This document shows positions 1-17,576 of a DNA stretch of 17,864 bases, piece by piece. The notes beneath the pieces were generated by a model. That model saw only the letters and a list, made by a program, of their open reading frames with translations, ran no database searches and had not been told where the DNA came from. The stretch comes from Candidatus Hodarchaeota archaeon (GTDB lineage Archaea; Asgardarchaeota; Heimdallarchaeia; Hodarchaeales; Hodarchaeaceae): NCBI GenBank assembly GCA_016839785.1, contig JAEOTQ010000150.1, positions 1 to 17,864 of the forward strand, written 5' to 3'. Every line of letters begins with the position of its first letter. The stretch's first letter is position 1. Position numbers and translations under genes: made by a program.

Positions 1-2
1 AG

Positions 3-428
3 AAACGGGAGCTTTTAATTAATCGTGAACAGCAGAGTATAATTTTAACGACATCTGGTATGATGGAAGGAGGGCCAGTTTATGATTATTTACGAATGGG
101 TGGAAACAATACCCAAAATGGCCTGTATATTGTAGGTTATCAAGTGGAAGGAACAATGGGATCAGAGATCGCAGCTGGACGAAAAGAAGTATCACTAGAT
201 AATGGATTTGGCCAAGTTTTTGATGTCGTTTTAAATCTTGAAATTAAACAATTTCAATTTTCTGGTCATTCTTCATTAGAAGGCCTCGTGGAAATGGTTC
301 AATATTCCGCGCCACAGAAAATCTATGCAATTCATGGAGAACCTAATGCACAAGAGCGCTATGCAGATGAAGTGAGAAATTATGGATTCGAGGTTAAGAC
401 ATTAACATCACATGATATTCTTCAATAG
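3..428 (+). CDS. MBL-fold beta-CASP ribonuclease (CPSF73/YSH1-like), C-terminal part; 5' truncated by the window edge
   Basis: Frame is open from base 3 (KRELLINREQQSIILTTSGMMEGGPV...). Beta-CASP motifs TTSGMMEGG, VGYQVEGT, FSGHS and IHGE are present. Confidence 0.9.
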   Translation, partial: KRELLINREQQSIILTTSGMMEGGPVYDYLRMGGNNTQNGLYIVGYQVEGTMGSEIAAGRKEVSLDNGFGQVFDVVLNLEIKQFQFSGHSSLEGLVEMVQYSAPQKIYAIHGEPNAQERYADEVRNYGFEVKTLTSHDILQ

Positions 429-466
429 GAAATCAAATAATTTAGTAATTAGAAAGCGAAAAGGTT

Positions 467-889
467 ATGCTTTCCACCAATTTGGTACTCACTAATTCAG
501 TTCATTGTGCAATTAGCAATCTTCTTAAAGTAGATAACTTAATAGAACAAGTAGGCATATTATTTGGTACGAAGACTCGAACAAAAATAATTCTTGAATT
601 TTTTGTTGAAATGGAGAATTTAGATTCATCTCCAAATAGTTTCTCAATTGATTATGGAATTTTAGTGAAATATCTCAATAAATTTCAAGAGAATGATAAA
701 AAGCTACTTGGGTTCTTTCATTCTCACCCATCAGGGACAATTCTTTTCCCTTCTAAGAAAGATTTGTCATTTATGACGCTGTGGCCTTTTCCCTATGTAT
801 GGTTAATAGGAGTCTATCCAGCAAAATTAGTTGCCTTTACATATTTAGAAAATAAAGTAGAACCAATACCGTTCAATATTATACCTTGA
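467..889 (+). CDS. JAB/MPN+ (Mov34/JAMM) metalloprotease, desampylase/deubiquitinase-like
   Basis: EQVGILFG near the N-terminus and LLGFFHSHPSGTILFPSKKD give E...H-x-H-x8-S-x2-D, one residue longer than the canonical x7 JAMM spacing. Confidence 0.88.
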   Translation: MLSTNLVLTNSVHCAISNLLKVDNLIEQVGILFGTKTRTKIILEFFVEMENLDSSPNSFSIDYGILVKYLNKFQENDKKLLGFFHSHPSGTILFPSKKDLSFMTLWPFPYVWLIGVYPAKLVAFTYLENKVEPIPFNIIP

Positions 890-899
890 ACACAATTAT

Positions 900-1919
900 T
901 TACTCACTAGCAACAACAATTGGAAGTTGAGTTCCGCACGAGGAACAACAGTTTCCATGCAAATTAATTATACCAGTAAAAAATCTCTCCCGTTTAATAA
1001 CCAACTTTCCACAATTGTGGCAATATGTATGATTACCTTTATGCCCTGAAACATTTCCAATATAAACATATTTCAAGCCTACATCAGTAGCAGTTCGAAT
1101 TGCTTTTTCTAAAGTTTTAATGGATGTATATGGCAAGTGGTTTAATTTGTAATCAGGACGAAAAGCTGAGAAATGAAGAGGGATTAAAGGGCTAAGTTTT
1201 TCATAAATCCATTCACACATCTCCCGGATCATGGAATCAGAGTCGTTTTTAGTTGGAATTATTAGGTTGGTAAGCTCGAGATGGACTCCTTGATTATGGA
1301 ATATTTCACACGTTTTCAAGATAGGCTTCCAAGAAGGAGAATCACATATTTCTTTATAAAATTCTGACGAAAAACCCTTAATGTCGATATTTGCAGCATC
1401 AATATGTGGGGTAAGTGCTTCAGCTAATTTTCTGGTAATATATCCATTATCAACAACCACCATTTTTATGTTGTGCTTGTGGGCCAGCGTAGCTATATCT
1501 CTTACGTATTCAAATGCTATCATTGGTTCATTATAGGTGGAAGCAATTAATTTCATTTTTCTGTCTATACAATCTTCAACAATTTCTTCTGGAGATTTTT
1601 TAATAAGTTTAGATATATCACTCTTTTCTTTTTGCATTGAGATATGCCAATTTTGGCAATGCAGACAGCCAAGATTACATCCGTAAGATCCAAATGAGAG
1701 AATTTTCTTTCCAGGGTGGTAGTGATAAAGAGGTTTTTTCTCTATTGGATCTTCTGCTAATCTCCCATGTATTAATCCATAAGTTCGTGGTTCAATCTTC
1801 ATTCCTTTGCGGATTCTTGCTCCACACCAGCCCACTTCATTATCTGAAAGTTGACATAAACGAGGACAGGCAGTACACTGAAGTTTTCCTGATTTTAATT
1901 CCCTATGAAAATCCCACAA
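900..1919 (-). CDS. amrS: AmmeMemoRadiSam system radical SAM enzyme (PFL-activating-enzyme-like)
   Basis: N-terminal CTACPRLC...GWCGAR, DPIEKKPLYHYHPG, radical SAM CxxxCxxC (CNLGCLHC), TYNEP, AANIDIKGF, PLHFSAFRP, YVYIGNV and a C-terminal CHNC...CSSC zinc ribbon. TTG start. Confidence 0.92.
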   Translation of the reverse strand: MWDFHRELKSGKLQCTACPRLCQLSDNEVGWCGARIRKGMKIEPRTYGLIHGRLAEDPIEKKPLYHYHPGKKILSFGSYGCNLGCLHCQNWHISMQKEKSDISKLIKKSPEEIVEDCIDRKMKLIASTYNEPMIAFEYVRDIATLAHKHNIKMVVVDNGYITRKLAEALTPHIDAANIDIKGFSSEFYKEICDSPSWKPILKTCEIFHNQGVHLELTNLIIPTKNDSDSMIREMCEWIYEKLSPLIPLHFSAFRPDYKLNHLPYTSIKTLEKAIRTATDVGLKYVYIGNVSGHKGNHTYCHNCGKLVIKRERFFTGIINLHGNCCSSCGTQLPIVVASE

Positions 1920-2006
1920 TTTTGATTCATTACTCCGAACTTTACTTTAGATAAACGTCATGAGTTTGGGATTCTAAGGTGAGTCGTGTTCTATCATGAA
2001 ATTCCT

Positions 2007-2744
2007 TTAGTTTGCACTATAAGTTTCATTAGTTACATGGAAAGAAATTAACCCTTTTTCCATCATGCGTCCTACAGTTCTAGTTATAATAACTGGAGAA
2101 GTCCGCCCTTCTAATGAAGCCTTGAGGTTATCCATTGTGATTCTACCTTTTCTCATCAATTCAGCTAGTATATCCACCTCAGGAATATCTTCTGCCGATT
2201 CTTCGAGGAGGAATGAAAGAATCCCGTTTTCTCCTTGAATTACTTTAATTTCTTGAGATAAATCGATGGCTTTCAGTTCTTTTTCTTCCACCTCTTGTGA
2301 TAATCTTGATTCAATGTTTTGAATTTTCGTTCCATAATCAGAGATTGCTATTTTGGTATTATCTACATCTAGCTTAATCTTTTCTATCTCCTTCTTGATA
2401 GTTCCTGTATTTGCCTCAACGGTTTGCAATTCTCTATCATGATCACGAATTCGCATCTCTTTGTTTTGCTCCTCATCAATGACCTGTGCCTGTCTTTGCT
2501 TCAATTTCTCTATTAGATTCTTGTTACTCTCGATCTCATCTTTGAGTGAGGCCATTTTTGCTTCTTGTTCAGTTATGTCAGAACCCACAGCTTCTTTTTC
2601 CTTTATCAGAGTTTCAAGGTACTCCTGAGTACTTTTCAAATCCTGTAATCGGGTGAATATCTGCTCGGAGATGTCATCCTTAAGTCGGTTTAATGCTTCT
2701 TCACTGCGAATATATTTCTCACGGATTGTATCTGTATCCATCAC
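2007..2744 (-). CDS. Hypothetical protein: long coiled coil plus C-terminal winged-helix-like domain (paralog B)
   Basis: About 175 aa of E/K/Q-rich heptad-like sequence without Pro, then IPEVDILAELMRKGRITMDNLKASL...ITRTVGRMMEKGLISFHVTNETY (helix-turn-helix plus wing pattern). GTG at 2744 or ATG at 2741, preceded by GGAGG. Confidence 0.8.
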   Translation of the reverse strand: MMDTDTIREKYIRSEEALNRLKDDISEQIFTRLQDLKSTQEYLETLIKEKEAVGSDITEQEAKMASLKDEIESNKNLIEKLKQRQAQVIDEEQNKEMRIRDHDRELQTVEANTGTIKKEIEKIKLDVDNTKIAISDYGTKIQNIESRLSQEVEEKELKAIDLSQEIKVIQGENGILSFLLEESAEDIPEVDILAELMRKGRITMDNLKASLEGRTSPVIITRTVGRMMEKGLISFHVTNETYSAN

Positions 2745-3506
2745 TTATGCCTCCTTCTCAAACAAATCTATCTTCTCATTTACTTCAACGGTATCAACTG
2801 CTGAATCAAAATTAAGAACTTTTCTTTCGGCTAGTTTTTGTAAGATAGTCTTTAAAGATTCAGAATCAATTCCCAAAGCTGATCGAATTTCAATAATTGT
2901 AGACTTGGGATTTGGTTTATTCGCTAAGAATCTTATCAAATTTACTTCTGGAGTTTGTAGGTAAGATTGGCTTAATATTCTAATTGCTTTATATTTGTAT
3001 GTAAGCATATCTTTGTCGTTTTCTAACCGTTCACACCGTTCCTGAACTTTTTGAATCTTCGAATCAAAAATCGGTTGTAAATCGTCAAATTTTTTTCTTA
3101 AACGAAGGAGTTCTTCTTTATCATTTTTTAATATCGTTGATAAAGACGTTTTTTCGGAATCTAATCCTGTTAAATGGTTTTGATCAGCAGTTAAACGGGA
3201 TTGTGATTGAGATAGTTTTTCATTATGTGAATTCAGGTTTGATTCATGTACAGAAATTTCTTTTTCAATCTCCGCTACTTCGTTTAATAAAGCCTGCTGA
3301 TCATTTGTTAAATCGGAAATTTCCCTGGTATGTTCATTAGATGTTCTTCTTAAGTCTCCAATATGTGTTCTTAACGACTCTAGCTCATTTATCAGAGATT
3401 TCAAGTCGTCTCGTATTAATTGAACTCTGCTCTGAAATTTAGTAACTAATTCTTCAAGATTAAGTTCGATTTTTCGAATTTCCTCTGCAGATCTCGGACT
3501 TTCCAT
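2745..3506 (-). CDS. Hypothetical protein: long coiled coil plus C-terminal winged-helix-like domain (paralog A)
   Basis: About 175 aa of heptad-like sequence, then TPEVNLIRFLANKPNPKSTIIEIRSALGIDSESLKTILQKLAERKVLNFDSAVDTVEV. GAGGAG upstream of the ATG; its TAA directly abuts the next start codon. Confidence 0.8.
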   Translation of the reverse strand: MESPRSAEEIRKIELNLEELVTKFQSRVQLIRDDLKSLINELESLRTHIGDLRRTSNEHTREISDLTNDQQALLNEVAEIEKEISVHESNLNSHNEKLSQSQSRLTADQNHLTGLDSEKTSLSTILKNDKEELLRLRKKFDDLQPIFDSKIQKVQERCERLENDKDMLTYKYKAIRILSQSYLQTPEVNLIRFLANKPNPKSTIIEIRSALGIDSESLKTILQKLAERKVLNFDSAVDTVEVNEKIDLFEKEA

Positions 3507-3571
3507 TGTCAGCTCCTCTGTAACTTGAATGCATTTTTCCCTTTTGTATAGGTTAGGGGGCAGAAGCGAGG

Positions 3572-3586
3572 TATAAAAAATATTCG
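3572..3586 (-). promoter_or_regulatory. Putative BRE/TATA promoter for the coiled-coil gene pair
   Basis: Minus strand reads CGAATA-TTTTTTATA about 65 nt upstream of the ATG at 3506. The AT-rich background limits certainty. Confidence 0.4.
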
Positions 3587-3715
3587 AAAAAGAGGAAATA
3601 TCATTTCTGTTAATAGAGATTTAAGGTGTCTATATTTTCTTGTTAAGGTAAAGAATTAGGAGTTTTCGCATTATTTGGAGAGATTTTTACTACAATTCAC
3701 CACTTAAAGACTGAA

Positions 3716-3744
3716 AAATTTCATCACTAGTTGTGAATAAATTT
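3716..3744. promoter_or_regulatory. Dyad-symmetric operator, Phr-box-like
   Basis: AAATTT-ca-TCAC-tagtt-GTGA-at-AAATTT; 10 of 12 positions per arm are complementary. Lies upstream of hsp20. Confidence 0.65.
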
Positions 3745-3765
3745 ATCCCTTGTGAATAAATTTAT
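3731..3765 (+). repeat. Perfect 16-bp direct repeat TTGTGAATAAATTTAT, two copies
   Basis: Copies at 3731-3746 and 3750-3765 separated by CCC. Each contains the palindrome ATAAATTTAT. Confidence 0.9.
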
Positions 3766-3768
3766 AAA
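3761..3768 (+). promoter_or_regulatory. TATA box of the hsp20 operon
   Basis: TTTATAAA matches the archaeal TATA consensus and ends 55 nt before the hsp20 ATG. Confidence 0.6.
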
Positions 3769-3823
3769 TCACTTCCTATTATTGTTAATCAATTAAAAAT
3801 TAAAGCAAAGGAAGAAAAGTGAT

Positions 3824-4450
3824 ATGCCAAACTCCACAGGAGATAATTATGATGATGATGACCGCTTTCCGAGGCGGAGACGACGAAAAGATAACCCATT
3901 TGACGATTTTATTAACCATTTCATGAATCAATTCGGCGCAGGATTCGATTTTGAAAATGTCTTCGATACAATGGATCTGTTCATCGAAGATCTGTTACGT
4001 CGATTTAACTTCATTTCCTCAAAAGGTGATCTTGGGAATACTCCAGGATTTGTATGGGGGTTTCGAATGACAAATGGCCCGGATGGGCGTCCCCATATCG
4101 AAAGATTCGGTAATACACCACAGAAAGTTGAATCTGGGAAAAGTCAGTATAGATCCTCTCCTGAGCGGGAACCCCTCGTTGATGTTATTGAGGATACAGA
4201 TGTTTTACGGGTTATCGCAGAAATTCCAGGTGTAAAAAAGGAGAATATTGATTTATCTACAACAGATAAAAGTTTATTGATCCAAGCCGAATCAGATGAC
4301 CATCGTCGGAAATATTATAAAGAAGTTGATCTTCCCTGTGAAATTATCCCTGACTCTGCTGCTGCAAAGTTTAAAAATGGTGTCCTTGAGGTTGAATTAA
4401 CCAAGGAACAATGCTTAGAACAATCTGGCACCAGAATTGATGTTTCTTAA
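3824..4450 (+). CDS. hsp20: Archaeal small heat shock protein Hsp20 (alpha-crystallin domain)
   Basis: FVWGFRMTNGPDGRPHIERFGN, REPLVDVIE, AEIPGVKKENI, RKYYKEVDLP and AKFKNGVLEVEL are typical of archaeal Hsp20. Confidence 0.95.
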   Translation: MPNSTGDNYDDDDRFPRRRRRKDNPFDDFINHFMNQFGAGFDFENVFDTMDLFIEDLLRRFNFISSKGDLGNTPGFVWGFRMTNGPDGRPHIERFGNTPQKVESGKSQYRSSPEREPLVDVIEDTDVLRVIAEIPGVKKENIDLSTTDKSLLIQAESDDHRRKYYKEVDLPCEIIPDSAAAKFKNGVLEVELTKEQCLEQSGTRIDVS

Positions 4451-4486
4451 TTCATTTATTGCGACTTTGTCTGGAGATGATGAATA

Positions 4487-6670
4487 GTGGCATCTGAAGA
4501 TTACCAGCTAAAAGTTGCTGAAGCGAAATACAGGGATGTCGGAAAAGGGATTGCACGTATAGCTAAAAGAATTATGAATAAGCTCAGTTTACAATCTGGA
4601 GATATAATTGAAATTGAGAACAAGAATTCAATCAAAACTTCTGCAATTGTTTGGCCAGCTTATTCAGAGGATGAATTACAGGATATCATTTTACTTGATC
4701 AAATTACCAGACAAAATGCAGGGGTTCATTTAGACGATACTGTTACAATCCGAAGAGCTATAACACTTAATGCGACATCAATTACCCTCCTTTCTATTTC
4801 AGCTAATACTCTTGGGAATGCCAAAGCTTTCTTTAATCAGAAACTACAAGGAAGAGCACTTTCAATTGGTGACCGAATGCGGTTCGGATCTATGGATAAT
4901 ATCTTTGAATATAAAGTAGTAGAAGTCCAACCTGATAATGAATCAGTTGTAGTAAACAATGATACTAAAATTATTATTGGATCGCAAGAAACGTCTTCCC
5001 TCAAGGAACAAAAAGAAAGCAAAGCAATACCAAAGATTTCATATGAAGATATTGGGGGCTTAGATGAAACGATAAAGAATTTAAGGGAGATGGTTGAACT
5101 TCCCATGCGTTATCCTGAACTCTTTCAACGCTTGGGGGTAACCCCTCCAAAAGGTGTCTTATTACACGGACCACCTGGAACTGGAAAAACATTACTAGCG
5201 AAAGCAGTTGCTAGTGAATCAGCCTCTCATTTTATTCATGTTTCCGGTCCAGAAATCATGTCAAAATTCTATGGTGAAAGTGAACAGAAGGTAAGGGAGA
5301 TATTTGATGAAGCTGCCGAAAATGAGCCTAGTATTATCTTTATTGATGAAATTGATAGTATTGCGCCCAAGAGAGATGATCAAGGTTCAGGAGAAGTAGA
5401 ACGTCGTATTGTTTCACAAATGTTATCACTAATGGATGGTTTAAGTGGAAGAGGGGAAACAATCGTTATAGGAGCAACAAATAGGCCAAATTCAATTGAT
5501 CCTGCATTACGACGTCCTGGACGATTTGATAGAGAAATTGAGATTCCAGTTCCGACATCTGACGCAAGAAAAGTCATTCTTGAAATACAAACTAGATATA
5601 TGCCTTTAGCTGAAGACGTCGATATGAATATGATAGTGGAGCATACAAAAGGTTTTGTTGGAGCCGATCTCTCCTCTTTGACAAAAGAGGCGGGAATGAA
5701 AGCCATTAGACGATTATTCCCAAAAATAGTCTGGGGTGAATCAATTTCTATTGAATTACTGAATCAAATATCTGTAACTGCAGATGATTTCGAAAATGCC
5801 CTAAGGGGAATTAAACCAAGCGCGCTTCGGGAAGTTCTTGTAGATGTCCCTACTGTATCTTGGGATGATATAGGAGGGTTAGATGAGGTAAAACAGCAGC
5901 TTCGTGAGGCAATTGAGTGGCCAACAATTTTTCCTTCCTTATACAAGTACATGGGAAGTGAATCACCACGAGGAATTCTATTAACTGGTTTACCTGGGAC
6001 AGGTAAAACTTTATTAGTAAAGGCAGTCGCTAATCAATCATCGAGAAATTTTATCTCCATTAAAGGTGCTGAGATACACTCTAAATGGATAGGAGAGAGC
6101 GAACGAACAGTTCAGGAAATCTTTCGGAAAGCAAAATTGACTACTCCCTGTATAGTATTTTTTGATGAAATCGAAACAATTTTCCCAGTACGTACAGAGT
6201 CTAATCCTGGTTCAGAGAGATTAGTCACTACCTTGCTAACAGAGATGGATGGATTGGAGGAAATTAATGATATTATTGTTATTGGTGCAACAAATCGTCC
6301 TGATATGATTGACCCTGCAGTTTTACGCCCAGGTAGGTTTGATTATATTATTGATTTACCTTTACCCGATACAGTCGCGAGAGGAAAAATTCTCGATATT
6401 TATGTTAAAGACAAACCCATCGATACAAATATATCAATAGATTCCCTAGCAAAACTTACAGCTGGGTTTAGTGGAGCCGATTTGAAAGGTGTTGTAAATC
6501 TAGCTTCTTCATATGCTACCTCACGATTTTTATCGCAAGTTAAGGAAAGTAATCCTTTACCAACTGACAAAGAAATTCATCAGATGACTGAATCAAAAAA
6601 GCCAAAAATTAAAGTAAGTGATTTTGAGAAAGCGGTGAGTAATATTCGTACATCTTCGAAAATTCGTTAA
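4487..6670 (+). CDS. cdc48: CDC48/p97/VAT family double-ring AAA+ ATPase
   Basis: N domain ([18 protein letters not shown]); D1 [36 protein letters not shown]; D2 [27 protein letters not shown] start with GGAGATGA upstream. Confidence 0.97.
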
Positions 6671-6707
6671 GGTGTTTCTTAACGAAGCTCTATATTGATG
6701 TGATTTA

Positions 6708-7505
6708 ATGTATCTTGAAAAATTAACCGAAGAAATCGAGGAATGGTTAGAAAAAGCTGACGAAGGAGAAACGCTAAGATTCCTTGGTAGATCGGTTCCA
6801 AAAAATACAGATGGAATAATAATTATAGAATTGTTAGGTTATTATGGAGCTATCGCTCAAACAATCACAAAAGAATTGCAGGCCCTTAGTCATGAAAATT
6901 TGAAACTAGCAGGCGTTTTTTCCAGTTATTTCAATGAAATGGTGCAACTTATTGCAGAAGACATTTTACTACCAATCTCTTTAGTTCAGGTCCAAATCGG
7001 ATCAAATCGTTTTATCCTTACAACTAGTAGTTTTGCAATTCCTGATGTCATCAGTTATCAATTAGCAGAGGAATTATGGTCATTTTATTTGAAATTAAAT
7101 CCTTCAAAGATCATTATTGTTGATGGAGTTCACAACTATCGTCGAGATATCTTAACAGTTCCAGAGGTCCATCGGGTCGTATCCTCAAACGCAGGAGTAG
7201 AGCTCCAGAAAAGCAATACTTCTGATTTTACAATGATGGGGCAAGCAGCCAGTTCCTTTCTTATTTATTATTCAAATGTTGAAAATATACCTATTGAGTT
7301 ACTTACAGTCGATTCATTTGCCGAATATGATCCTGTATCAGCATTAGAACTTTTAAAAATACTTACACGTGATTATAAAATTGATTCTGATTTTACAAAT
7401 CTTTTAAAGGAAGTAGAGGGTTTTAAAAGCACTTATCAAGCTTCAAAAAGTAGAAATCTCGAGGATTGGAAATTAAATTCTCCTGATTCACAATTCTTTA
7501 TGTAA
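6708..7505 (+). CDS. PAC2-family proteasome assembly chaperone-like protein (divergent PbaA/PbaB type)
   Basis: Size and pattern fit: IIIIELLGYYGAIAQTI, GVFSSYF, KIIIVDG, DPVSALELLKIL, a helical tail and an aromatic C-terminus (QFFM). Adjacent to cdc48. Confidence 0.65.
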   Translation: MYLEKLTEEIEEWLEKADEGETLRFLGRSVPKNTDGIIIIELLGYYGAIAQTITKELQALSHENLKLAGVFSSYFNEMVQLIAEDILLPISLVQVQIGSNRFILTTSSFAIPDVISYQLAEELWSFYLKLNPSKIIIVDGVHNYRRDILTVPEVHRVVSSNAGVELQKSNTSDFTMMGQAASSFLIYYSNVENIPIELLTVDSFAEYDPVSALELLKILTRDYKIDSDFTNLLKEVEGFKSTYQASKSRNLEDWKLNSPDSQFFM

Positions 7506-7517
7506 ATGGTGTAGTAA

Positions 7518-8081
7518 ATGAGTAGTAATCCAAATGATGAAATAGAATTGATACTAAAGATTCTCTCATACCAGATAGAAAGTAATAAAACTTTAAATTA
7601 CCAAGAAATTGATGAAATTCTTCATCTACTCTCAAATCGAACGAGAAGGAGGATGCTAGTAGAATTAGCTCACGAGGAAGGATTCGTTAATGATCTTGTT
7701 AAACGATTAAATGATCATCCTCAATCTATAATTAGGCATCTAGATGTTCTGAAGAAACAGAACCTTGTTGTTGGAAAAGAGCGTCCTAGTGAAGGTCCTG
7801 GTAGACCTCGTCTCTATTACACGCTTTTTCCAGGAGTAGCAAAATTTATTCAAAAACCAGAGACGAAGGAAATAAGAGATACTCAATCTCATATTTGTAG
7901 TAGCTTTCCACGCTTAAATACTATTAAACAACAGCTTAATAAACGAATATCGCATTCGGAACAAAGAAAAATTGTATCAGAAGTTGAATTTATTAAAAAT
8001 GAGCATGAAATGGCACTTGAAGTCTGTAATGAAATTCTAGCATCTACGAAAAAAAGAGTTACGAAAATTAAAATTGAATGA
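7518..8081 (+). CDS. ArsR-type winged-helix transcription regulator, Phr (archaeal heat-shock regulator)-like
   Basis: ILHLLSNRTRRRML...GFVNDL...IIRHLDVLKKQNLV...GRPRLYY followed by a helical C-terminus. Resembles Pyrococcus Phr as recalled (LGNETRRRIL...YFVSEL...GRPRKYY). Confidence 0.85.
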   Translation: MSSNPNDEIELILKILSYQIESNKTLNYQEIDEILHLLSNRTRRRMLVELAHEEGFVNDLVKRLNDHPQSIIRHLDVLKKQNLVVGKERPSEGPGRPRLYYTLFPGVAKFIQKPETKEIRDTQSHICSSFPRLNTIKQQLNKRISHSEQRKIVSEVEFIKNEHEMALEVCNEILASTKKRVTKIKIE

Positions 8082-10347
8082 GAGAAGATTCATTATGGGG
8101 CATCCCTCTCAAAATCGTGTTCAATCTGAGATTAATTCGCGAACTCTTGTACTTTTTGATTCTCTTGAGAAAGCTACTGGTTCTATATATAATTTTTTTA
8201 ATTCTCTTGCAAACACAAATCAATTATTGGCCAGGGGTGTTATAATTGGTGAGGAAACACTATTTCAAGATAAAAATTTTAAAAAAATTGTCAAAGAATC
8301 AGATCTATTTCCTAAGGTAAAAGCATGTTTTCCAAGAGAAGTATCCTCGTTACTTGGATCAACTCATGATTTTATAATCCAAGATCTAAGGGAGAATTTT
8401 AATCCAAATAAATTGATTATCCTTGCAGAAACAGTAGTTGGTGGTGGGTTAATAATTCTAATTGGAGAAAAGCATGATTATTGGATCAAAACCGTGAATA
8501 AAAGTCGTTTCGGCCATTCTAAGAAATCAAATCTACTTATACGTTTTTTAAAAGAAATTAAGAACAATGAAAGCTGCAGACTCTCAGTTAATAAGGAGAT
8601 AAATCTTCATCCTTATTATAGACCAATTTCACTATCAAAAGTACTTTCTAAAGAAATTCTAAAGATTCCAATTTCAAATAGTCAGTACGATTTAATCAAA
8701 TCTCTTTCTAAAGAACTCGGAGAGAAAAAAAAGGAAAGTATTGTTAATGTAATCGTTGCTGATCGTGGAAGAGGAAAATCCGCTGCTACAGGACTGACCA
8801 TTGCTTATGCATTAATGAATTACATCACTAGTGAATGTCGGGTTACACTTACAGCTCAGACTATAGCTCAGACCCAGTCAATTTTCTTATTTGTTACATT
8901 AGGGTTTAATAGCTTAAAAGTAAAATATAATGTTCAACGATTAGAAGATCAAATAGTCGGAATATTTCTTGAAAATGGGAGTAAGATACAATATCGAAAT
9001 CCAGAAGAATTATCAAAGGATATAAAATCAACAATTCTAATTGTTGATGAAGCGGCCACATTTCCGCAATCTAAATTGACTGAAATTATATCTAGTAAGA
9101 CCAAAAAAGTATTGATTTCGACAATTCACGGTTATGAGGGAACGGGTAGGAGTTTTCAATATAAAATCCTGGATATGATTAAGAGAAAACCACAATACAA
9201 GATCAATTTATATTCACTAAATGATCCAATTCGATATTCTGCTGGTGATTTAATTGAAGCTCTCTTAAATGAAACATTCCTTCTACAGGTGGAACCACCA
9301 ATGATTGGATTGGAAGAGTTCGATAAAGTAAATGCTGATATTGAATTGTTATCTATCGATACGTCTTCAGAATTAATTTTTGAAAGGGAACTCAAATTAT
9401 TAAAAGAGATAATGGGCTTATTGATTTTTTCCCATTACAGAAATCAACCCAATGATCTTTTACTACTCACTGATTCCTACCGACATTCTCTTGCTTATCT
9501 TACTAGTTCTACCCAAGGTAACCAAAAATCTATCCTCTTAGCATGTCAACTAGCTATAGAAGGAGCTTTACCTGATTACGACATAGAAAAAATTGAAAAA
9601 GGACATTTTATTGAAGGTGATCTCATTCCAGCGGTTGCCATTCGATATTTCTCAACAGAATTTGCACAGTTCAAAGGTATAAGAATTGTCAGGATTGCAT
9701 CTCATCCGAAATTTAGAAATAAAGGTTTAGGGAGAATAGCTGTCGAAAATTTAATCAAAAGATACGAGTCACTTGACTGGATAGGGGTAAGTTTTGGAGC
9801 AACAGGAAAGTTGATTAAATTTTGGAAGAAATTTGGATTTAAAATTATCCATATTCGTCCGATAAAGACTCCAGAGACTTCAGAATGGAATATAGTACTT
9901 GTCAAGCCACTTTCAGATCGTGCAATTACTATTGTTGAAGAAGCCTCTCGAAACTTCTTTTTACAGTTTATTCATTTGTTAAAGCAGTCCTTATTTGACC
10001 TTAAACCTGAATTAGCTCTTTTAATCATCCACTCGTGTGTTTCAATTCCAAATTACCAAATGAAAATTACTCAGAGCGGAAATTATAGACTGAAGAAATA
10101 TATTGAAGGAAAAATTAATTTCTTATTAGCTGTGGACGTCCTGCAAGAATTAGCTATTGCTTATTTTGCTGCACACATTGATGTTAAGTTAAGCTCGTCT
10201 CAAGAATTACTTCTGATATCCAGAATTCTTCAAGGACGAACATGGGGCCAAACCTTAGGAAAAACAGGATTATCTTGGAAAGAAGCCAACGGTTTGTTAA
10301 TTAACGCTATAAAAAAGATCACAGGAGCCGTTTCAAATTTACCATAA
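8074..10347 (+). CDS. tmcA: tRNA/rRNA cytidine N4-acetyltransferase TmcA/Nat10
   Basis: ETVVGGGLIIL, Walker A ADRGRGKS, VDEAA, STIHGYEGTGRSF, PIRYSAGD, HYRNQPNDL, GNAT motif RIVRIASHP...GLG, GVSFGAT, FWKKFGF. Start is TTG 8074 (overlapping the upstream gene) or ATG 8095. Confidence 0.95.
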   Translation: MNERRFIMGHPSQNRVQSEINSRTLVLFDSLEKATGSIYNFFNSLANTNQLLARGVIIGEETLFQDKNFKKIVKESDLFPKVKACFPREVSSLLGSTHDFIIQDLRENFNPNKLIILAETVVGGGLIILIGEKHDYWIKTVNKSRFGHSKKSNLLIRFLKEIKNNESCRLSVNKEINLHPYYRPISLSKVLSKEILKIPISNSQYDLIKSLSKELGEKKKESIVNVIVADRGRGKSAATGLTIAYALMNYITSECRVTLTAQTIAQTQSIFLFVTLGFNSLKVKYNVQRLEDQIVGIFLENGSKIQYRNPEELSKDIKSTILIVDEAATFPQSKLTEIISSKTKKVLISTIHGYEGTGRSFQYKILDMIKRKPQYKINLYSLNDPIRYSAGDLIEALLNETFLLQVEPPMIGLEEFDKVNADIELLSIDTSSELIFERELKLLKEIMGLLIFSHYRNQPNDLLLLTDSYRHSLAYLTSSTQGNQKSILLACQLAIEGALPDYDIEKIEKGHFIEGDLIPAVAIRYFSTEFAQFKGIRIVRIASHPKFRNKGLGRIAVENLIKRYESLDWIGVSFGATGKLIKFWKKFGFKIIHIRPIKTPETSEWNIVLVKPLSDRAITIVEEASRNFFLQFIHLLKQSLFDLKPELALLIIHSCVSIPNYQMKITQSGNYRLKKYIEGKINFLLAVDVLQELAIAYFAAHIDVKLSSSQELLLISRILQGRTWGQTLGKTGLSWKEANGLLINAIKKITGAVSNLP

Positions 10348-10362
10348 AGAAAATTGATAATT

Positions 10363-10665
10363 TCAGATTTTTTTCTCCAGTAAATGATCAAGCGAAGACA
10401 CATCTTCTCTACTCACTTCATTATTTATTACGGCTTTTTGTGGGATAATGGAAATCTTATTATTGAAAGTTTTTGCTCGATATTTATCTATCTGAATTAT
10501 ACTACAAAACAGGCTCATAGAACAATTTATGGATGTTTTAAAGTCTGATCCATTAATGATTGTCAATTTTCCTTTATCACATTGACATATGATATCAAGA
10601 GATCCGTCCGTCCCCTGTTTCGAGGTTTTTGTGAGCTGATTGAAGAATGATTGCCAAGAAGACAT
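10363..10665 (-). CDS. Small hypothetical protein (100 aa)
   Basis: ATG-initiated ORF with GAAGG upstream, converging on tmcA with a 15-nt gap. No recognisable motif. Confidence 0.5.
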   Translation of the reverse strand: MSSWQSFFNQLTKTSKQGTDGSLDIICQCDKGKLTIINGSDFKTSINCSMSLFCSIIQIDKYRAKTFNNKISIIPQKAVINNEVSREDVSSLDHLLEKKI

Positions 10666-11067
10666 ATTTTTTTCCTTCTATTCGTTAACAAATGAATATT
10701 TACAGATTTAGAATTAATAGAAGCATGTTTTCCAGATGTCATGACGAATGTCTTTATTGAACAGATCTGAAAGGAAAGGCTATTTACAATTAATAGAGGG
10801 TCAATTTTTATTGAAATATTCTGGTTATCACCCTTATTTATTTCCAGAAGAATTCGTTACTGAATAATTCTTTCAAAAACAGAGGAACTTAAAGTATATA
10901 TTCCGAAACAGAAAAATCTTAAAAAATTGAGAACAATGAGTTCTATAAAGCACCTAATCTAGCATGGTGGGTCTTTCAATAATCATCAATATGTAGAAAT
11001 TTACCAAGTGCTTTGGAATCAGGCATCTGGACAATTAAATTGATCTATAGGGTGGTAATTCTTGTAA

Positions 11068-12369
11068 ATGGATATTTTAACAATTCTAATTGTTATTGGA
11101 CTTTTAATACTAATCATACGCAAGATCTGGAGCTCTAAAGGTAAACGAGTGCAGAATGCAATCCAGTTAGAGCAGCAAGGGAGGTATCTAGATGCTTTAG
11201 ATATATATTCCAAAATTTCAATTAGTCAGGCAGCAGATATGGTAATGCGAACACCAGAAGCTTCGCAAATTCTTGCATTAAGAAGCCTTGAGAGAAAATT
11301 TACCCCCCGAAACATCGAAAGAGCGTTTCTTAATCTAGCTCGCTTATATGGAGGAAAGAATGATCCTCATAAGTCATCTAAAGCCTATGTTTTTGCTAGG
11401 AAACCATTTGCTGCAGCAAAAGCCTATGTAGATATAGGAGGTATTGACTTTATACCAGCAGCAATTCAAGTGATTGATCAGAATTCACAGTTTATCCATG
11501 ATCGTGATCAGGCAATAAGGAATTTAGCTCGGCATGCATATTCTAATCAAAAGTTTCTTGAGGCTTCAGAACTTCTTAGAGCAATTGGAGCCGAAGAGGA
11601 GGCAAATACTGTACTAATTGCGGCCGCTTCAGAATTAAAAAAGCAAGGTTTTGATTCTCTGGCTAAACAATATCTTTCAACAACAAGTCATCCGAAAAAA
11701 GCCATGAAGCGATATATTCGTGATATTCAGGAAAGCTTCATGAAAGGAGATATTGAACAGGTTCGAAGATCTTTAAGTATCACAAATAGCCTAATAGGAA
11801 ATTTAACCGAGGATGACGAGGGAGAACTCAATAACGAAAATCAACAAATAATTGATAAAATACAAGAATTCGATAGAAGATTGAAAGTATTGGATTCAGC
11901 TAGAGATTTACTGAGAAAGAAAAATCTCAATCAATCTGTAGCTCTTTACGAAGAACTTGTAGAAAGTTTTGGTGATGAAGTGCCTGGATTTGTGTATGCA
12001 GAAGCAGCATTAGCAAATGAGGATAATAATCCTTCATACGCCGCTTCTCTTTATCAACAGGCCGCAGAATTAGTGAAGTCTAAGAAGGCTGCAAATTCAT
12101 TTAGATTACGTGCTAAGAATATAGAATTAGCCACGGAAAGGGGGTCATCTACAGTATCGACTGGGACTGCGTTTCTTGCAGAAGAAAGAGTTGAGGAAAA
12201 TTGTTCAGTTTGCCGAACTATAGTTTCTGATATTGATACATTGGTACGCTGCCCAGAGTGTGGATCACCAGCCCATTATGCCCATCTCGCAGAATGGTTG
12301 AAAATTCGCGGTTTTTGTCCAATCTGTAAAAAGAAAATTAAGGTCAAAAATCCAAAACGTCGTTATTAA
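11068..12369 (+). CDS. Membrane-anchored alpha-helical-repeat protein with C-terminal RING-like zinc finger (putative E3 ligase)
   Basis: N-terminal hydrophobic helix ILTILIVIGLLILII followed by RK; Ala-rich TPR/solenoid-like helices; C-terminal C-x2-C-x12-C-x2-C-x4-H-x2-H-x3-W-x6-C-P-x-C. Confidence 0.85.
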   Translation: MDILTILIVIGLLILIIRKIWSSKGKRVQNAIQLEQQGRYLDALDIYSKISISQAADMVMRTPEASQILALRSLERKFTPRNIERAFLNLARLYGGKNDPHKSSKAYVFARKPFAAAKAYVDIGGIDFIPAAIQVIDQNSQFIHDRDQAIRNLARHAYSNQKFLEASELLRAIGAEEEANTVLIAAASELKKQGFDSLAKQYLSTTSHPKKAMKRYIRDIQESFMKGDIEQVRRSLSITNSLIGNLTEDDEGELNNENQQIIDKIQEFDRRLKVLDSARDLLRKKNLNQSVALYEELVESFGDEVPGFVYAEAALANEDNNPSYAASLYQQAAELVKSKKAANSFRLRAKNIELATERGSSTVSTGTAFLAEERVEENCSVCRTIVSDIDTLVRCPECGSPAHYAHLAEWLKIRGFCPICKKKIKVKNPKRRY

Positions 12370-12395
12370 CTTGTGTAAAGAATTCACTGTGTCTT

Positions 12396-13079
12396 TTAGA
12401 TTCTTGTATGGAATTTTCGGGCGAAGAGGAGACGCTGAAAGGCTGAAATATTGGAGGCAATACCAATTATCAGTATAATAACCGCAAGAATACCAATATT
12501 GGTGAAGGGCCAAAGATTGGATAGAATATTTTCAATCAATAGAATTTCTAGAAGGCAACCTATCGATAATAAAGTTAATTTCTCTTTTCTTTCAAAGATA
12601 CCTTGAGTAGAATTCATATTTAAACCGCCACGGAGCTCTGCCGTCGAGCGAACATAGCTCGCTAAGATCATTCCCTCAAAGCAGAAAAAAACTAATTCAG
12701 GTATAACATAACCTCCAATCATAATACCTAACAAAAAGAAAAATTCTGAAAGTCTATCCAAAGTACGATCAAGTAATGCTCCAAAATGACCTGCAATTCC
12801 CCTTGCTCTCGCTAAACTTCCATCCATCATATCCAATAATGAAGATACTCCAAGTAAAAAAGTACCCATTAATAATCCTAAGCTTATTCCAATTTCAGGT
12901 CCAGATGCATATGCTACACAACTACAAATACTTGCTCCAACACTTAACATGGAAATCATGTTTGGTGTAATTCGTGTGTTCGCTAAGAGCCTGCCAGAGG
13001 GTGCAAAAAAAGCCTCATATTTTTTTCGTAAACCTTTCTTAGGGGTGGAGTTTGACACGTTATGTTCACACTTGTCCAA
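12396..13079 (-). CDS. CDP-alcohol phosphatidyltransferase (archaetidylinositol-phosphate synthase/PgsA-like)
   Basis: ITPNMIS and the signature D-x2-DG-x2-AR-x8-G-x3-D-x3-D (DMMDGSLARARGIAGHFGALLDRTLD), plus SYVRS and several TM segments. Confidence 0.93.
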   Translation of the reverse strand: MDKCEHNVSNSTPKKGLRKKYEAFFAPSGRLLANTRITPNMISMLSVGASICSCVAYASGPEIGISLGLLMGTFLLGVSSLLDMMDGSLARARGIAGHFGALLDRTLDRLSEFFFLLGIMIGGYVIPELVFFCFEGMILASYVRSTAELRGGLNMNSTQGIFERKEKLTLLSIGCLLEILLIENILSNLWPFTNIGILAVIILIIGIASNISAFQRLLFARKFHTRI

Positions 13080-13221
13080 GTAATCTAATCATCGAATTTC
13101 TTAGAATTTTTGGTATGTGATAAATTTTTTGCGTCAGAAATTTAAATTGATCAGAGTTTTCATTTATTATTAGGAATAAACTAATTTTTTCCTTTATCTG
13201 TAGATCCAGAGGAGAAATTTC

Positions 13222-14034
13222 GTGAATCAATTGCTAAATTTTTTGACTGATTACATACGGCAAAATTTACATTCTGAAGAGGTAGGAATTCTATACAGCG
13301 GGGGAATTGACTCATCCATCGTATTGAAGATTCTGATTGACGAAATTGGTTCAAATAAAATCAAAGCAGTCACCGTTGGAATGAAAAAGAGTTACGATGT
13401 TCAAAATGCCATGAATGGAGCTAAAGAATTAGGAATTAAGATTAATATTTATCTACTTGATTCTTCCATCATTAATTCGGCTATTGATAGCATTATTAGA
13501 ATGAATGTAGTTTCTGAGGTAGGAAAGTTAGCTATTGCCCTTCCTTTATATCTTGGTATGCGGTTTCTTCTCCAAAATAATATCAAGCAAGTTTTTCTCG
13601 GTCAAGGTGCAGATGAGCTTTTTGGTGGATATCAAAAATACGTTGATCTGTACAAAGATTCCAAAGAGGGGGAAATAAGGGATGTGATGAATTCTGATTT
13701 ACACTCACTTGTGACAAATCAGCAAATAATGGAGAAGAAGATTGCTAATAATTTAGGACTCACTCTTGTGTATCCTTTTCTTTCTCCAACCTTGATTAAA
13801 TTCGCGCAATCGATACCAATAAAGAATCATATTATAGGAAACCGAGGTCAACCAATACGTAAAGCTCTTCTTAGAAAATTGGCTTCGGATCTTAACTTAT
13901 CATCAACTGTGTCTAATCAACCTAAAAAAGCCCTTCAATATGGGTCAGGAACAGTGAAGCTTTTGAGGAAGATTGCCAAAGACGCTGGCTATCTAAATTT
14001 ACCTCTCTGGTTTGAACATTTTTCTCAAACTTGA
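13222..14034 (+). CDS. Asparagine synthase C-terminal (synthetase) domain protein without glutaminase domain
   Basis: PP-loop YSGGIDSS, GQGADELFGGY, YPFL, RKALLR, PKKALQYGSG. GTG start with GAGGAG upstream. Confidence 0.9.
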   Translation: MNQLLNFLTDYIRQNLHSEEVGILYSGGIDSSIVLKILIDEIGSNKIKAVTVGMKKSYDVQNAMNGAKELGIKINIYLLDSSIINSAIDSIIRMNVVSEVGKLAIALPLYLGMRFLLQNNIKQVFLGQGADELFGGYQKYVDLYKDSKEGEIRDVMNSDLHSLVTNQQIMEKKIANNLGLTLVYPFLSPTLIKFAQSIPIKNHIIGNRGQPIRKALLRKLASDLNLSSTVSNQPKKALQYGSGTVKLLRKIAKDAGYLNLPLWFEHFSQT

Positions 14035-15102
14035 AGGTTTTTCATACAAAGCAATTATCGATTTGTGATCCATTTGTATTATGAAGGTAGTCAAAGTATC
14101 GCGAATCATGAATTTCTTTTTATCTATTTGATCTATTGCTAATTTAACCTCATTAGAAGTGTGTCGAATTGAGAAGTGAATAGGTAAAAGTAAAAATAGA
14201 TTATTGAAGTCTTCTAGTGCCTCAACTAGCGATTGGAGGTCAGTATGCAGATCTAGATGATAGCTTTCGTGTTGAGCTAGGTATGTCGTTTCGTGGATAA
14301 TTACGTTACAATCTGAGAAGAAATCCAGAATTTTGGGATTGAGAGCGGTATCTCCAGAATAACCAAGAACAATATTTATATCACGAAAAATATCTGATCG
14401 CTTAATAGATCTTCCTTTAATTGTAATTGATTCATTGTTTGATTCTATCTGCCTGAGCGTGGAGTTAAAGGGTATTTCTAATTGACGAGCTTTTTCCACA
14501 TCAAGTTTTACTTTATTAAAAATAATTTTATACGCAACAGAACCTTGAGGGAGATGAGAATTATGTTCACAACTAAGTGTGTATCCTTGTTCAAGAATAA
14601 TCGATTCTCCCACCCCAATCACAATAATCTTCAGTAATTTGTTGATGATAATTCCAACTTCAATCGCTAAAAATCTATAGAGAAAGACATCATCAGAGAG
14701 TGGAAAATTCGAATCATCAAGTGAAAAAACATGTTTCATTCGAAGCTGTAGAGGGAGAGTCGAACCTTTTGGTATCACAAGATTTAGCGGTTCAAGTTCT
14801 CGTTTTTCTTTTTCTAATAGAACAATTCTATGTAAAATGTGTGGGAGACCTCCCCAATGATCAAAATGAAGATGAGAAAGGATAATATGAGAAATTTTTC
14901 CAAATGTGGGACGACCTAAAGCTTCAAGCTCGGTGTTATTTGTAGTTCCAATCACTTCATTCCAATTTTTTTGGAATCGAGCGAAGGCCTGAACGATTTC
15001 TGAAGGACATTCAAATAAGAACTTGTTATCTACCAAAAATGATGTAGTAGCATTATTCGCAGTTGGTACTGTTCCCCTTGATCCTATCACACCAATGATC
15101 AT
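13999..15102 (-). CDS. rnz: Ribonuclease Z (tRNA 3' endonuclease, short form), MBL fold
   Basis: IGSRGTVPT, SHLHFDHWGGL (HxHxDH), flexible arm KLDVEKARQLEIP, YSGDT, IHETTY, HTD, IHFSIRH. ATG at 15102 is preferred over GTG 15117. Confidence 0.88.
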   Translation of the reverse strand: MIIGVIGSRGTVPTANNATTSFLVDNKFLFECPSEIVQAFARFQKNWNEVIGTTNNTELEALGRPTFGKISHIILSHLHFDHWGGLPHILHRIVLLEKEKRELEPLNLVIPKGSTLPLQLRMKHVFSLDDSNFPLSDDVFLYRFLAIEVGIIINKLLKIIVIGVGESIILEQGYTLSCEHNSHLPQGSVAYKIIFNKVKLDVEKARQLEIPFNSTLRQIESNNESITIKGRSIKRSDIFRDINIVLGYSGDTALNPKILDFFSDCNVIIHETTYLAQHESYHLDLHTDLQSLVEALEDFNNLFLLLPIHFSIRHTSNEVKLAIDQIDKKKFMIRDTLTTFIIQMDHKSIIALYEKPSSLRKMFKPER

Positions 15103-15203
15103 TTTTTGTGAACACACCTAATGGTTCAAAAGAAGTAATCGTGGCAAGACTTTGGCATTGTCGCTATAAGGGACATAATTCTTGCAGAAAAATAGACGGA
15201 AGT

Positions 15204-15272
15204 TTATCCTTTCCTTCTTCGTTCTTTTCGTTTTCTTCTTCTTAGCCGTTTTTTCTTCCATTTTTCTCTCAA
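15204..15272 (-). CDS. rpl41e: Ribosomal protein L41e (eL41/eS32), 22 aa; absent from the ORF track
   Basis: TTG AGA GAA AAA TGG AAG... translates to MREKWKKKRLRRRKRKERRRKG*, matching the eL41 pattern MRAKWRKKRMRRLKRKRRK. Confidence 0.9.
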   Translation of the reverse strand: MREKWKKKRLRRRKRKERRRKG

Positions 15273-15318
15273 AGTACTTCACACTACTTAATAATTAATT
15301 ATACGTTATTTCTAATTG

Positions 15319-15759
15319 TTAGGCACCGCTTGATATAATCTCTTCAATCCATGCTTTAAATTTAACTTTTGGTGCTGCGCCAGCTCGTTGTGCTAATCGA
15401 TTACCTGATTTAAACATGATAAAAGTTGGCACAGAAAAAATTCGATATCTACCAGATGCTTGTGGGTTGTGATCAGTGTTAATTTTAAGAAAAACAACCT
15501 TATTGGTATATTCTCTGCTTAGTTCTTCATATATAGGAGCCATTACTTGACATGGTTTGCACCATGCATCAGCAGAAAAATCCACTAAAACTGGTAGGGG
15601 AGAGGATTGAACAATTCTATCGATATTTGAATCGTCAACGTGAGTGACACCATTTTGATTTACTTCATTGAAGAAAGATGCGTCTTTTTTTAGCGATGAA
15701 GCCTTCTTTTTCAAAATTTCTTGAAGTTCAGGATCAAATTCGGTCAATTTATCTTCCAT
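15319..15759 (-). CDS. trxA: Thioredoxin with N-terminal helical extension
   Basis: PVLVDFSADAWCKPC active site, FLKINTD, cis-Pro loop SVPTF, FKSG. Confidence 0.93.
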   Translation of the reverse strand: MEDKLTEFDPELQEILKKKASSLKKDASFFNEVNQNGVTHVDDSNIDRIVQSSPLPVLVDFSADAWCKPCQVMAPIYEELSREYTNKVVFLKINTDHNPQASGRYRIFSVPTFIMFKSGNRLAQRAGAAPKVKFKAWIEEIISSGA

Positions 15760-17048: not shown

Positions 17049-17063
17049 GAAATAGTAAATTGA

Positions 17064-17565: not shown

Positions 17566-17576
17566 GAAAGTTATAT
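17566..17576 (+). promoter_or_regulatory. Putative BRE/TATA promoter for rpl14e
   Basis: GAAAG-TTATAT about 135 nt upstream of the ATG at 17710. Confidence 0.4.

Follow-up and report, generated by a model that had tools for sequence, protein, structure and literature searches.

A conserved pair of coiled-coil/winged-helix paralogs in Asgard archaea

Background

What do two abutting genes of an Asgard archaeon encode when each specifies a long coiled coil with a small C-terminal domain, and what might the two products form together? The question is raised by a contig of Candidatus Hodarchaeota archaeon (GenBank assembly GCA_016839785.1, contig JAEOTQ010000150.1), of which positions 1 to 17,864 (in nucleotides, nt) of the forward strand are referred to here as the window. 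The two genes, termed A and B, lie next to each other on its reverse strand (Table 1), and the genome (4.04 Mb, 248 contigs, 84.5% complete) contains one copy of the pair. A preliminary description of the window had proposed that A and B are old duplicates which form a heterodimeric rod carrying two winged-helix heads. Asgard archaea are studied as the nearest archaeal relatives of eukaryotes so far known, and attention has mostly been directed at those of their genes that have eukaryotic homologues. In this study, we examined the pair by structure prediction, profile searches and comparison of its loci across the phylum.

The gene pair and its predicted fold

On the coding strand, the junction between the two genes reads AAGGAGGCA-TAA-GTG-ATG. 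The stop codon of A abuts the GTG, the ATG lies one codon further on, and a GGAGG is placed within the last codons of A, 8 nt ahead of the ATG; both reading frames have the coordinates given by the preliminary description. This is the layout of translational coupling, and it points to a probably coupled and roughly 1:1 synthesis of the two proteins. As the relatives of B begin with M-D-T-D and are mostly 243-245 amino acids (aa) long, the ATG at 2741 is the likelier start of B. The motifs TPEVNLI and IPEVDIL, together with LQKLAERKVLNF and VGRMMEKGLISF, were all found in the translations.

Both proteins are acidic, with net charges of -8 for A and -15 for B. The highest 19-residue Kyte-Doolittle mean in A and B is 0.70, indicating that a transmembrane segment is absent, and neither a Walker A (G....GK[ST]) nor a Walker B (hhhhD[DE]) pattern was found in either protein. 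With these motif patterns absent and with matches to SMC proteins at the level of the arms only, the earlier statement that the two proteins lack an ATPase motif and a transmembrane segment, and are not SMC or Rad50, holds.

AlphaFold2 models built from the family alignments gave the two chains the same layout, about 175 residues of coiled coil followed by a C-terminal winged helix, in agreement with the earlier proposal. In A, a helix spanning residues 7-183 precedes a helix-strand-helix-helix-strand-strand domain at 186-242 (mean predicted local distance difference test, pLDDT, 86.0; predicted template modelling score, pTM, 0.34). In B, a helix at 3-181 is followed by a domain of the same type at 187-243 (pLDDT 88.2, pTM 0.35), and the conserved acidic stretch before this domain is LLEESAEDIPEVD. 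In the tail of A, the aspartate of the I/V-D-L/F motif occurs in 22 of 29 sequences, and the motif is the end of the protein in most other lineages; residues 250-253 have a low pLDDT.

Structural comparison yielded a fold without a family. A Foldseek search of the PDB with the model of A, a check suggested by the preliminary description, gave zero matches at E ≤ 1e-3, and its best rows, all weak (from E 3.1e-3), were exclusively winged-helix proteins, including MarR-type regulators, CAP, IclR, Z-beta and a COP9 subunit. When B was compared with 48,161 chains by VIA-align, residues 172-244 aligned to approximately 50 winged-helix domains with Z scores of 8.5-10.3, among them those of RPC62, Fur, MecI, Rpa2, Z-alpha, TFE, the MCM C-terminus, Hop2, ESCRT-II and cullin. 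Such a flat list names the fold and leaves the family unspecified. On these models, the C-terminal domain of both A and B is a predicted winged helix.

Relationship to known families

Database searches recovered 61 relatives of A (252-288 aa) and 82 relatives of B (mostly 243-245 aa). Publicly, they are named either 'hypothetical protein', in metagenome-assembled genomes of Hodarchaeales or Heimdallarchaeota, or carry automatic Joint Genome Institute labels such as 'chromosome segregation ATPase', which is wrongly applied to this pair. Against Pfam and NCBIfam, neither A nor B had a match above cut-off, only coiled-coil noise being returned; the best scores of A were 27.1 bits for ATG17_like (cut-off 43) and 33.8 bits for SMC_prok_B (cut-off 567). 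Winged-helix scores were faint: 18.1 bits for MarR_2 over residues 184-230 of A (cut-off 27), 17.6 bits for Sta1 over residues 189-234 of B, and 15.7 bits for MarR with the C-terminal 80 residues of the window's B (cut-off 24.6). When the C-terminal domains were scanned singly, MarR matched 16 of 27 B domains (best E 9.8e-8) and TrmB 12 of 27 (best E 1.5e-6), while MarR_2 matched 10 of 29 A domains and TrmB 6 of 29. As far as profile scores can tell, the better scores of some relatives show kinship of the domain and not of the whole protein. Two relatives of A also scored just above the cut-off of Pfam DUF7491 (36.6 and 30.3 bits; cut-off 30) over approximately 50 rod residues that are coiled coil only, and this family is not among the matches of the window's A.

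Profile searches of the PDB with the full-length alignments returned only myosin, tropomyosin, crescentin and SMC arms, which are uninformative on kinship. With the C-terminal 80 residues alone, weak matches to generic winged helices were obtained (best E 1.8e-4), including ZitR, Lrs14, Lrp and TFE at E 1.8e-4 to 0.01. An identity as a defence-system or phage protein was rejected, the PADLOC and PHROGs matches being coiled-coil noise of 15-23 bits. In the ESM Atlas, both proteins lie near clusters of archaeal hypothetical proteins (scores 0.91 and 0.94), for which Promethearchaeota is the commonest phylum label and a common Pfam family is absent. A further Atlas lead, at a score of 0.79, is a cluster of 210-aa proteins that are most often labelled Bathyarchaeota at the phylum level.

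A full-text literature search, which does not extend to supplementary tables where the family may be listed under a cluster number, found no description of the pair, and the words 'coiled' and 'winged' have 0 occurrences in PMC12962969 and PMC13734099. None of the Pfam, NCBIfam, PADLOC, PHROGs and PDB searches rose above coiled-coil noise and weak scores to generic winged helices, so the earlier conclusion that a named family could not be assigned still applies. By these comparisons, the A/B pair belongs to no described family; its parts are ordinary, and the family appears to be new.

Paralogy and age of the duplication

The kinship of A and B is visible at the profile level only, as a direct BLASTP comparison of the two was not significant (E 1.5). 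Using alignments of close relatives, hhalign matched A to B with 96.8% probability (E 3e-10), and with phylum-wide alignments the match rose to 99.8% (E 4e-30) over 248 colinear columns. Coiled-coil composition can be ruled out as the cause of this match, because the C-terminal 80 residues alone gave 98.4% (E 8e-15, 75 columns).

A maximum-likelihood tree, unrooted and from a quick search, was built from 68 C-terminal halves (31 from A, 27 from B and 10 from single-gene forms), after the near-identical loci of the window's genus had been thinned to 7 and 6 near-duplicate loci of other families removed. All 27 B rows fell on one side of a branch with a Shimodaira-Hasegawa-like approximate likelihood ratio (SH-aLRT) support of 94, and all A rows and single-gene forms fell on the opposite side. 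This separation indicates that A and B had split before the pair-carrying families diverged. Taken with the profile matches, the tree sustains the old duplication claimed in the preliminary description, and on this comparative evidence A and B are ancient paralogs.

Distribution and retention of the pair

The genomes of the phylum were surveyed with a profile of the C-terminal 80 residues of B. At E ≤ 1e-3, a threshold that lets in generic winged helices, 303 of 400 genomes matched; at E ≤ 1e-8, matches were found in 110 of the 190 genomes that are at least 90% complete. At that completeness, every genome of the window's class matched (23/23: f1 11/11, f4 7/7, f6 2/2, f7 3/3; family handles are ours), and further matching families were f9 (3/3), f11 (2/2), f12 (1/1), f19 (1/5), f20 (75/89), f26 (1/1) and f27 (3/4). 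Among 1.84 billion representative proteins, no more than 128 clusters matched this profile at E ≤ 1e-3, of which 57 did so at E ≤ 1e-10, and most are proteins of 240-255 aa with the match at the C-terminal end; the library carries no names from which taxonomy beyond Asgard could be read. A protein search with alignment A3, in which the 8000 candidates sharing most words were scored, added five distant proteins.

Of 48 loci examined in many Asgard families, 43 have an A-type open reading frame (ORF) and, next on that strand after a gap of -4 to +30 nt (median 0), a B-type ORF; the remaining five are a fragment or run into the end of a sequence. This recurrence, together with the 61 and 82 relatives of the same length, indicates that the pair is more than a chance arrangement. 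Co-conservation of the two genes in Asgard genomes, for which the preliminary description had put forward phyletic profiling and synteny as checks, is thereby established, and the pair extends beyond Hodarchaeales.

The lengths of the main pair are narrow, about 247-255 aa for A (where the start is unambiguous) and 241-254 aa for B. Some f20 genomes have a second pair, A' and B', with two longer chains, which measure 283-284 and 285-289 aa in all three loci inspected (Table 1). The tree places A' and B' as sisters of the A and B of f20, with a support of 99 each, from which it follows that the second pair was duplicated as a unit and that both partners were lengthened together.

Single-gene relatives of the pair were found in two families. 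Family f31 lacks the pair and harbors instead one 226-aa coiled-coil/winged-helix gene, the product of which matches the profiles of A (54.6 bits) and B (45.3 bits) colinearly; it was found in 53 of the 61 f31 genomes, among them all 23 that are of high quality. The gene comes immediately after top6B-top6A in the same orientation, a Top6A homologue being adjacent in 22 of 24 loci, and it is followed in 23 of 24 loci by a conserved 333-aa protein without a family match. Scanning was extended beyond the gene of the 333-aa protein at one locus, L053, where it revealed a Roadblock/LC7 gene and a radical SAM gene. The other single form, from one genome of f14 (L054:2459-3094), is a coiled-coil protein of 212 aa, adjoins a PAC2-family gene and scores 35.3 bits with the full-length profile of alignment A3 and 29.2 bits with that of alignment A4; no match to either C-terminal winged-helix profile was found in it. 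Shared synteny between the pair and the single-gene forms was not found, as judged from the neighbouring radical SAM genes (E 0.007 over 80 residues) and PAC2 genes (E 0.67).

Two further observations were made during the survey. In genome G064, which is of the same genus, in a single contig and 70% complete, A is split into two pieces approximately 210 kb apart (C1:783306-783650 and C1:572598-572771), the C-terminal piece adjoining B; an assembly artefact or a rearrangement may have produced this. The C-terminal B profile, run against the representative proteins, also matched proteins of 640-850 aa with four to seven tandem MarR-like winged-helix repeats (P0151, P0155, P0156, P0163, P0164, P0170, P0174, P0188, P0194, P0199 and P0204), the scores of which sum over the repeats. 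These winged-helix arrays are treated as a separate family.

Arrangement of the two chains

A sliding-window analysis found the heptads of both chains unbroken from the N-terminus to approximately 40 residues before the P-E cap, where a +4 phase shift occurs in each (phase 3 to 0 in A, phase 2 to 6 in B). The shift is the same in genus-level and phylum-wide alignments, and in A it coincides with Pro145, which is invariant in alignment A1. As the discontinuity stands at an equal distance from the same end in A and B, a parallel, in-register dimer is suggested and not an antiparallel one, in which the two discontinuities would clash.

Prediction of the A:B complex, another check suggested at the outset, gave a score of 0.60 versus 0.00 for the best of three controls and was graded as weak support; at least 95% of contacts are common to the runs, and the partner has a pLDDT of 86. 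The mark applied is reached by 116 of 157 solved complexes and by 2 of 215 mismatched pairs, and at scores of 0.60 or below the passes comprise 18 of the 157 solved complexes and both of the mismatches that passed.

Conservation is concentrated towards the ends of the chains. Within the window's genus, column identity in A (alignment A1) is 0.87 at residues 1-20, 0.82 at 181-200 and 0.54-0.61 at 81-160; in B it is 0.83 at 1-20, 0.85 at 41-60, 0.83 at 181-200 and 0.41-0.52 at 81-160. From this pattern, the rod looks like a fixed-length spacer between two putative functional ends.

The 1:1 parallel heterodimer of the preliminary description is thus supported indirectly, by the same +4 shift in both chains, the joint lengthening of the second pair and the weak complex score. 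We infer that a parallel, in-register A-B heterodimer is the most likely arrangement, with about an even chance of being correct.

Comparison with known systems

Several described systems share one or more features with the pair. Hop2-Mnd1, a eukaryotic recombination cofactor, as described in the abstract of PMC4402518 comprises two paralogous chains of about 200-250 aa that form a parallel coiled-coil rod with two juxtaposed winged helices at one end, the rod consisting of three leucine zippers with two kinks. The Hop2 winged helix is among the structural matches to B (2mh2, Z 9.0, within the flat list). However, the winged helices of Hop2-Mnd1 are N-terminal whereas those of A and B are C-terminal, A and B differ in being acidic, and they have one long heptad run with one stutter in place of the three zippers and two kinks described there. 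The Pfam families of Hop2 and Mnd1 were not among the hmmscan matches at E ≤ 1, a method that is insensitive to remote homology.

The archaeal chromatin proteins and regulators TrmB/TrmBL2, Lrs14 and Sso10a resemble A and B in joining an archaeal MarR/TrmB-like winged helix to a dimerising helix. The C-terminal domains matched Lrs14 (6cmv) at E 0.0026 and 0.0082, and B matched TrmBL2 with Z 8.7. In these proteins the winged helix precedes a short coiled coil, whereas A and B have a 175-residue rod before the winged helix, two distinct chains and an acidic charge. More generally, MarR/TrmB regulators have the winged helix-turn-helix fold in common with A and B, but the window proteins do not reach the Pfam gathering cut-offs.

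CdvB/ESCRT-III proteins likewise have about 250 aa, a helical N-terminal part and a C-terminal winged helix, the last of which is discussed for CdvB in PMC10936438. Membership of this group was rejected: the Snf7 and PspA families gave no match at E ≤ 1, and the monomer models show one helix, not a hairpin, a point of moderate weight. A link to Vps4/CdvC was also rejected, the nearby AAA ATPase being of the CDC48 family (855.9 bits versus a cut-off of 802.65) and failing CdvC (358.8 versus 650); this gene is divergently placed, and the arrangement is kept only within the genus.

Finally, SMC and Rad50 arms are long heptad-rich helices like those of A and B, and the SMC, Rad50 and JetC models weakly match the rod region. 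Nevertheless, an SMC/Rad50 fragment or split gene was rejected, ATPase motifs being absent and the NCBIfam SMC/Rad50 scores of 11-34 bits, versus cut-offs of 567-1087, being confined to the coiled-coil region. A hinge or zinc hook was rejected as well, the modelled helix of approximately 175 residues having no turn and CxxC being absent (one cysteine in A, none in B).

Possible role and alternative explanations

If the heterodimer is correct, A and B would lie side by side, parallel and in register, to form one coiled-coil rod of approximately 175 residues per chain, roughly 25 nm long. The two winged-helix domains would be juxtaposed at one end, and the opposite end would present the conserved N-terminal segments of approximately 60 residues. 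The rod would then be a fixed-length structural connector of Asgard archaea, in which the paired MarR/TrmB-like winged helices may act as a binding head and the conserved N-terminal end may serve as a second contact or as a site of self-association. The nearest relatives of the C-terminal domains are DNA-binding winged-helix families, and helix 3 starts with an arginine in 22 of 27 B domains and has a basic residue in 18 of 29 A domains. We tentatively prefer a role connected with the chromosome or DNA to that of a protein scaffold alone, with a confidence well short of even.

One specific reading, to which we give a small chance, is that A and B constitute an unrecognised Asgard housekeeping complex, a two-headed connector with its winged helices on the chromosome and its N-terminal end on another structure, derived from a single-gene homodimer that in one family still follows directly after the topoisomerase VI genes in an operon-like layout. 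If this were true, the pair would act as an adaptor for chromosome organisation or segregation that is specific to the archaea nearest to eukaryotes among those known, and it could also be the structural precursor of eukaryotic pairs with a coiled coil and a winged helix, for example Hop2-Mnd1. A rod of approximately 25 nm that is conserved and two-headed would be the type of component by which chromosomes, division sites or cytoskeletal attachments are organised. To our knowledge, almost nothing is known of such organisers in Asgard cells. The single-gene form beside the topoisomerase VI genes offers a concrete first hypothesis, and as the pair is small, soluble by prediction and easily expressed, its stoichiometry, geometry and DNA binding are open to direct assay, and Asgard strains in culture have made localisation feasible.

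A number of points weigh against the DNA-associated heterodimer. With regard to the rod, the pTM values of the monomer models are low, and one straight helix is what AlphaFold gives by default for sequences of this type. The heptad script is ad hoc, with 28-residue windows and a resolution of approximately seven residues; measured from the anchor, the a/d phases of the two chains are offset by one residue; and the shared stutter fits parallel homodimers equally well. A complex prediction that passes at the weak grade is more often wrong than right, unless the pairing was likely beforehand. With regard to the ligand, the last 80 residues have a mean net charge of -3.6 in B (range -9 to -1) and +1.6 in A, a conserved D-E stands in the hairpin 'wing' of A and B alike, and a conserved acidic run lies just before helix 1 of B; as both proteins and the wing are acidic, DNA binding is not a given. 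With regard to distribution, no B match at E ≤ 1e-8 was obtained for 12 of the 23 sampled families (f8, f10, f13, f14, f16, f17, f24, f28, f30, f31 with 0/40, f32 and f33). The context of the pair gives no function, since its neighbours differ between families. Finally, top6A lies at least 85 kb from the pair in all five complete pair-carrying genomes, and no relative of the pair was found beside top6 in the three loci inspected; the association with topoisomerase VI is a clue taken from a single family and does not characterise the pair itself.

The acidity of the chains also bears on the main rival, which we consider less likely than not and in which the same rod serves as a protein scaffold or adaptor and the winged helices bind protein, linking cytoskeleton, membrane machinery or proteostasis assemblies without contacting DNA. 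Protein-binding winged helices occur in ESCRT-II, cullins, PCI proteins and kleisins. The net charges, the acidic stretch before helix 1 of B and the D-E in both wings are in keeping with a protein ligand, as are weak profile matches to cullin and to UFL1/DDRGK1 (E 0.0024-0.09), the structural matches to ESCRT-II (Z 8.6) and cullin (Z 8.8), and the Hsp20, Cdc48 and PAC2 genes that adjoin the pair in the window's genus. However, the nearest sequence families are DNA-binding, the proteostasis neighbours are restricted to that genus (Hsp20 in 19 of 48 loci, all of them from it), and a partner gene conserved across families was not found.

It is unlikely that A and B instead form two separate homodimers, A2 and B2, as independent rods or with end-to-end contact only, their adjacency being left over from a tandem duplication. 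The single-gene relatives of f31 and f14 would need to act alone or as homodimers, the shared stutter is compatible with homodimers, and the heteromer prediction is weak. Yet order, strand and abutment have been kept in nearly all loci across many families, a long retention for unlinked functions; both chains of the second pair were lengthened and that pair was duplicated as a unit; and the junction fits coupled translation.

Very unlikely, in our view, is a pair of MarR/TrmB-type transcription factors with an unusually long coiled coil as dimerisation element: the winged helices are nearest to MarR and TrmB, and the PDB profile matches to ZitR, Lrs14, Lrp and TFE would fit, but the window proteins stay below the Pfam cut-offs for MarR_2 and MarR, a length-conserved rod of approximately 175 residues with conserved ends would be useless to a simple repressor, the proteins are acidic, the near-universal single-copy distribution is housekeeping-like whereas that of a regulator would be patchy, and no conserved target gene was found beside the pair.

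Genomic neighbourhood and expression

The pair has two recurrent neighbours in the window's genus, a divergent archaeal Hsp20 gene upstream and, immediately downstream in the same orientation, a gene for an AmmeMemoRadiSam-system radical SAM enzyme. Of the 48 loci, 19 have the Hsp20 gene and 19 the radical SAM gene, and all of them belong to that genus. The radical SAM gene follows B in 19 of the 19 genus-level loci that reach that far and may be co-transcribed with the pair there; beside the pairs of other families it was not found. The neighbours in those families are unrelated, such as a weakly kinase-like gene (nine f20 loci), an ABC ATPase (f4) and others, and no third gene travelling with the pair across families was found in the 48 loci.

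Table 1. Coordinates of the gene pair, its parts and associated features (positions refer to the window unless a locus is named; B residues in ATG numbering)
Feature	Position	Strand	Description
Gene A	2745..3506	-	ATG start, 253 aa, TAA stop 2745-2747; from ORF and translation
Gene B	2007..2744	-	245 aa from GTG 2744, 244 aa from ATG 2741; stop 2007-2009; paralog of A
A residues 7-183	2958..3488	-	Single unbroken helix with heptad repeat, predicted coiled-coil rod, ~26 nm if straight; DSSP on model
A stutter, residues ~140-150	3057..3089	-	+4 heptad phase shift around Pro145; placed within ~7 residues
A winged helix, residues 186-242	2781..2951	-	Conserved P-E cap (TPEV) at its opening
A C-terminal tail, residues 243-253	2748..2780	-	Conserved I/V-D-L/F motif
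B residues 3-181	2199..2735	-	Predicted coiled-coil helix; +4 heptad shift ~37 residues before P-E cap
B winged helix, residues 187-243	2013..2183	-	Preceded by conserved acidic stretch
Junction	2739..2754	-	GGAGG 2750-2754, TAA 2745-2747, GTG 2742-2744, ATG 2739-2741
Second-pair loci (f20)	L050:1814-3522, L051:3007-4727, L052:1580-3294		Chains ~35-45 residues longer
Single-gene loci (f31)	L053:2493-3170; also L055-L078
AmmeMemoRadiSam-system radical SAM enzyme	900-1919	-	340.3 bits versus cut-off 220; 87 nt downstream of B
Weakly kinase-like gene, 278-290 aa	L025:459-1292 and eight other f20 loci		Directly upstream of A, same strand; APH 25.2, RIO1 19.4, Bud32 26 bits (versus 125)
Proteostasis-looking run	3824-8081	+	Divergent from pair: archaeal Hsp20, CDC48-family AAA ATPase, PAC2-family protein, ArsR-type regulator, then tRNA(Met) cytidine acetyltransferase TmcA

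Contigs from libraries recorded as metatranscriptomic, which may hold DNA and in which stretches without cover mean nothing, give a weak hint that A and B are expressed. In run X8 they cover 2206-2429 and 2504-2763 of B (95-99% alike), and the latter contig has 19 bases on the A side of the junction, under the 31 needed for bridging. In run X18, 2902-3052 of A is covered (at least 99% alike), and 3856-4283 of the Hsp20 gene is covered in the same type of library.

Three other features of the window were noted. The ArsR-type regulator of the proteostasis-looking run matches the heat-shock regulator Phr weakly (34.3 bits versus 320). At 11068-12369 on the forward strand, a 433-aa ORF, for which no NCBIfam match at E ≤ 1e-5 was found, has a hydrophobic N-terminus and a Cys/His-rich C-terminus (CxxC ... 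CxxC ... H..H ... CxxC) that is RING- or zinc-ribbon-like. The stretch 3-889, also on the forward strand, holds the 3' end of a beta-CASP/RMMBL ribonuclease gene and, after it, a gene for a small JAB/MPN-domain protein, which weakly matches the haloarchaeal desampylase (30.5 bits versus 130).

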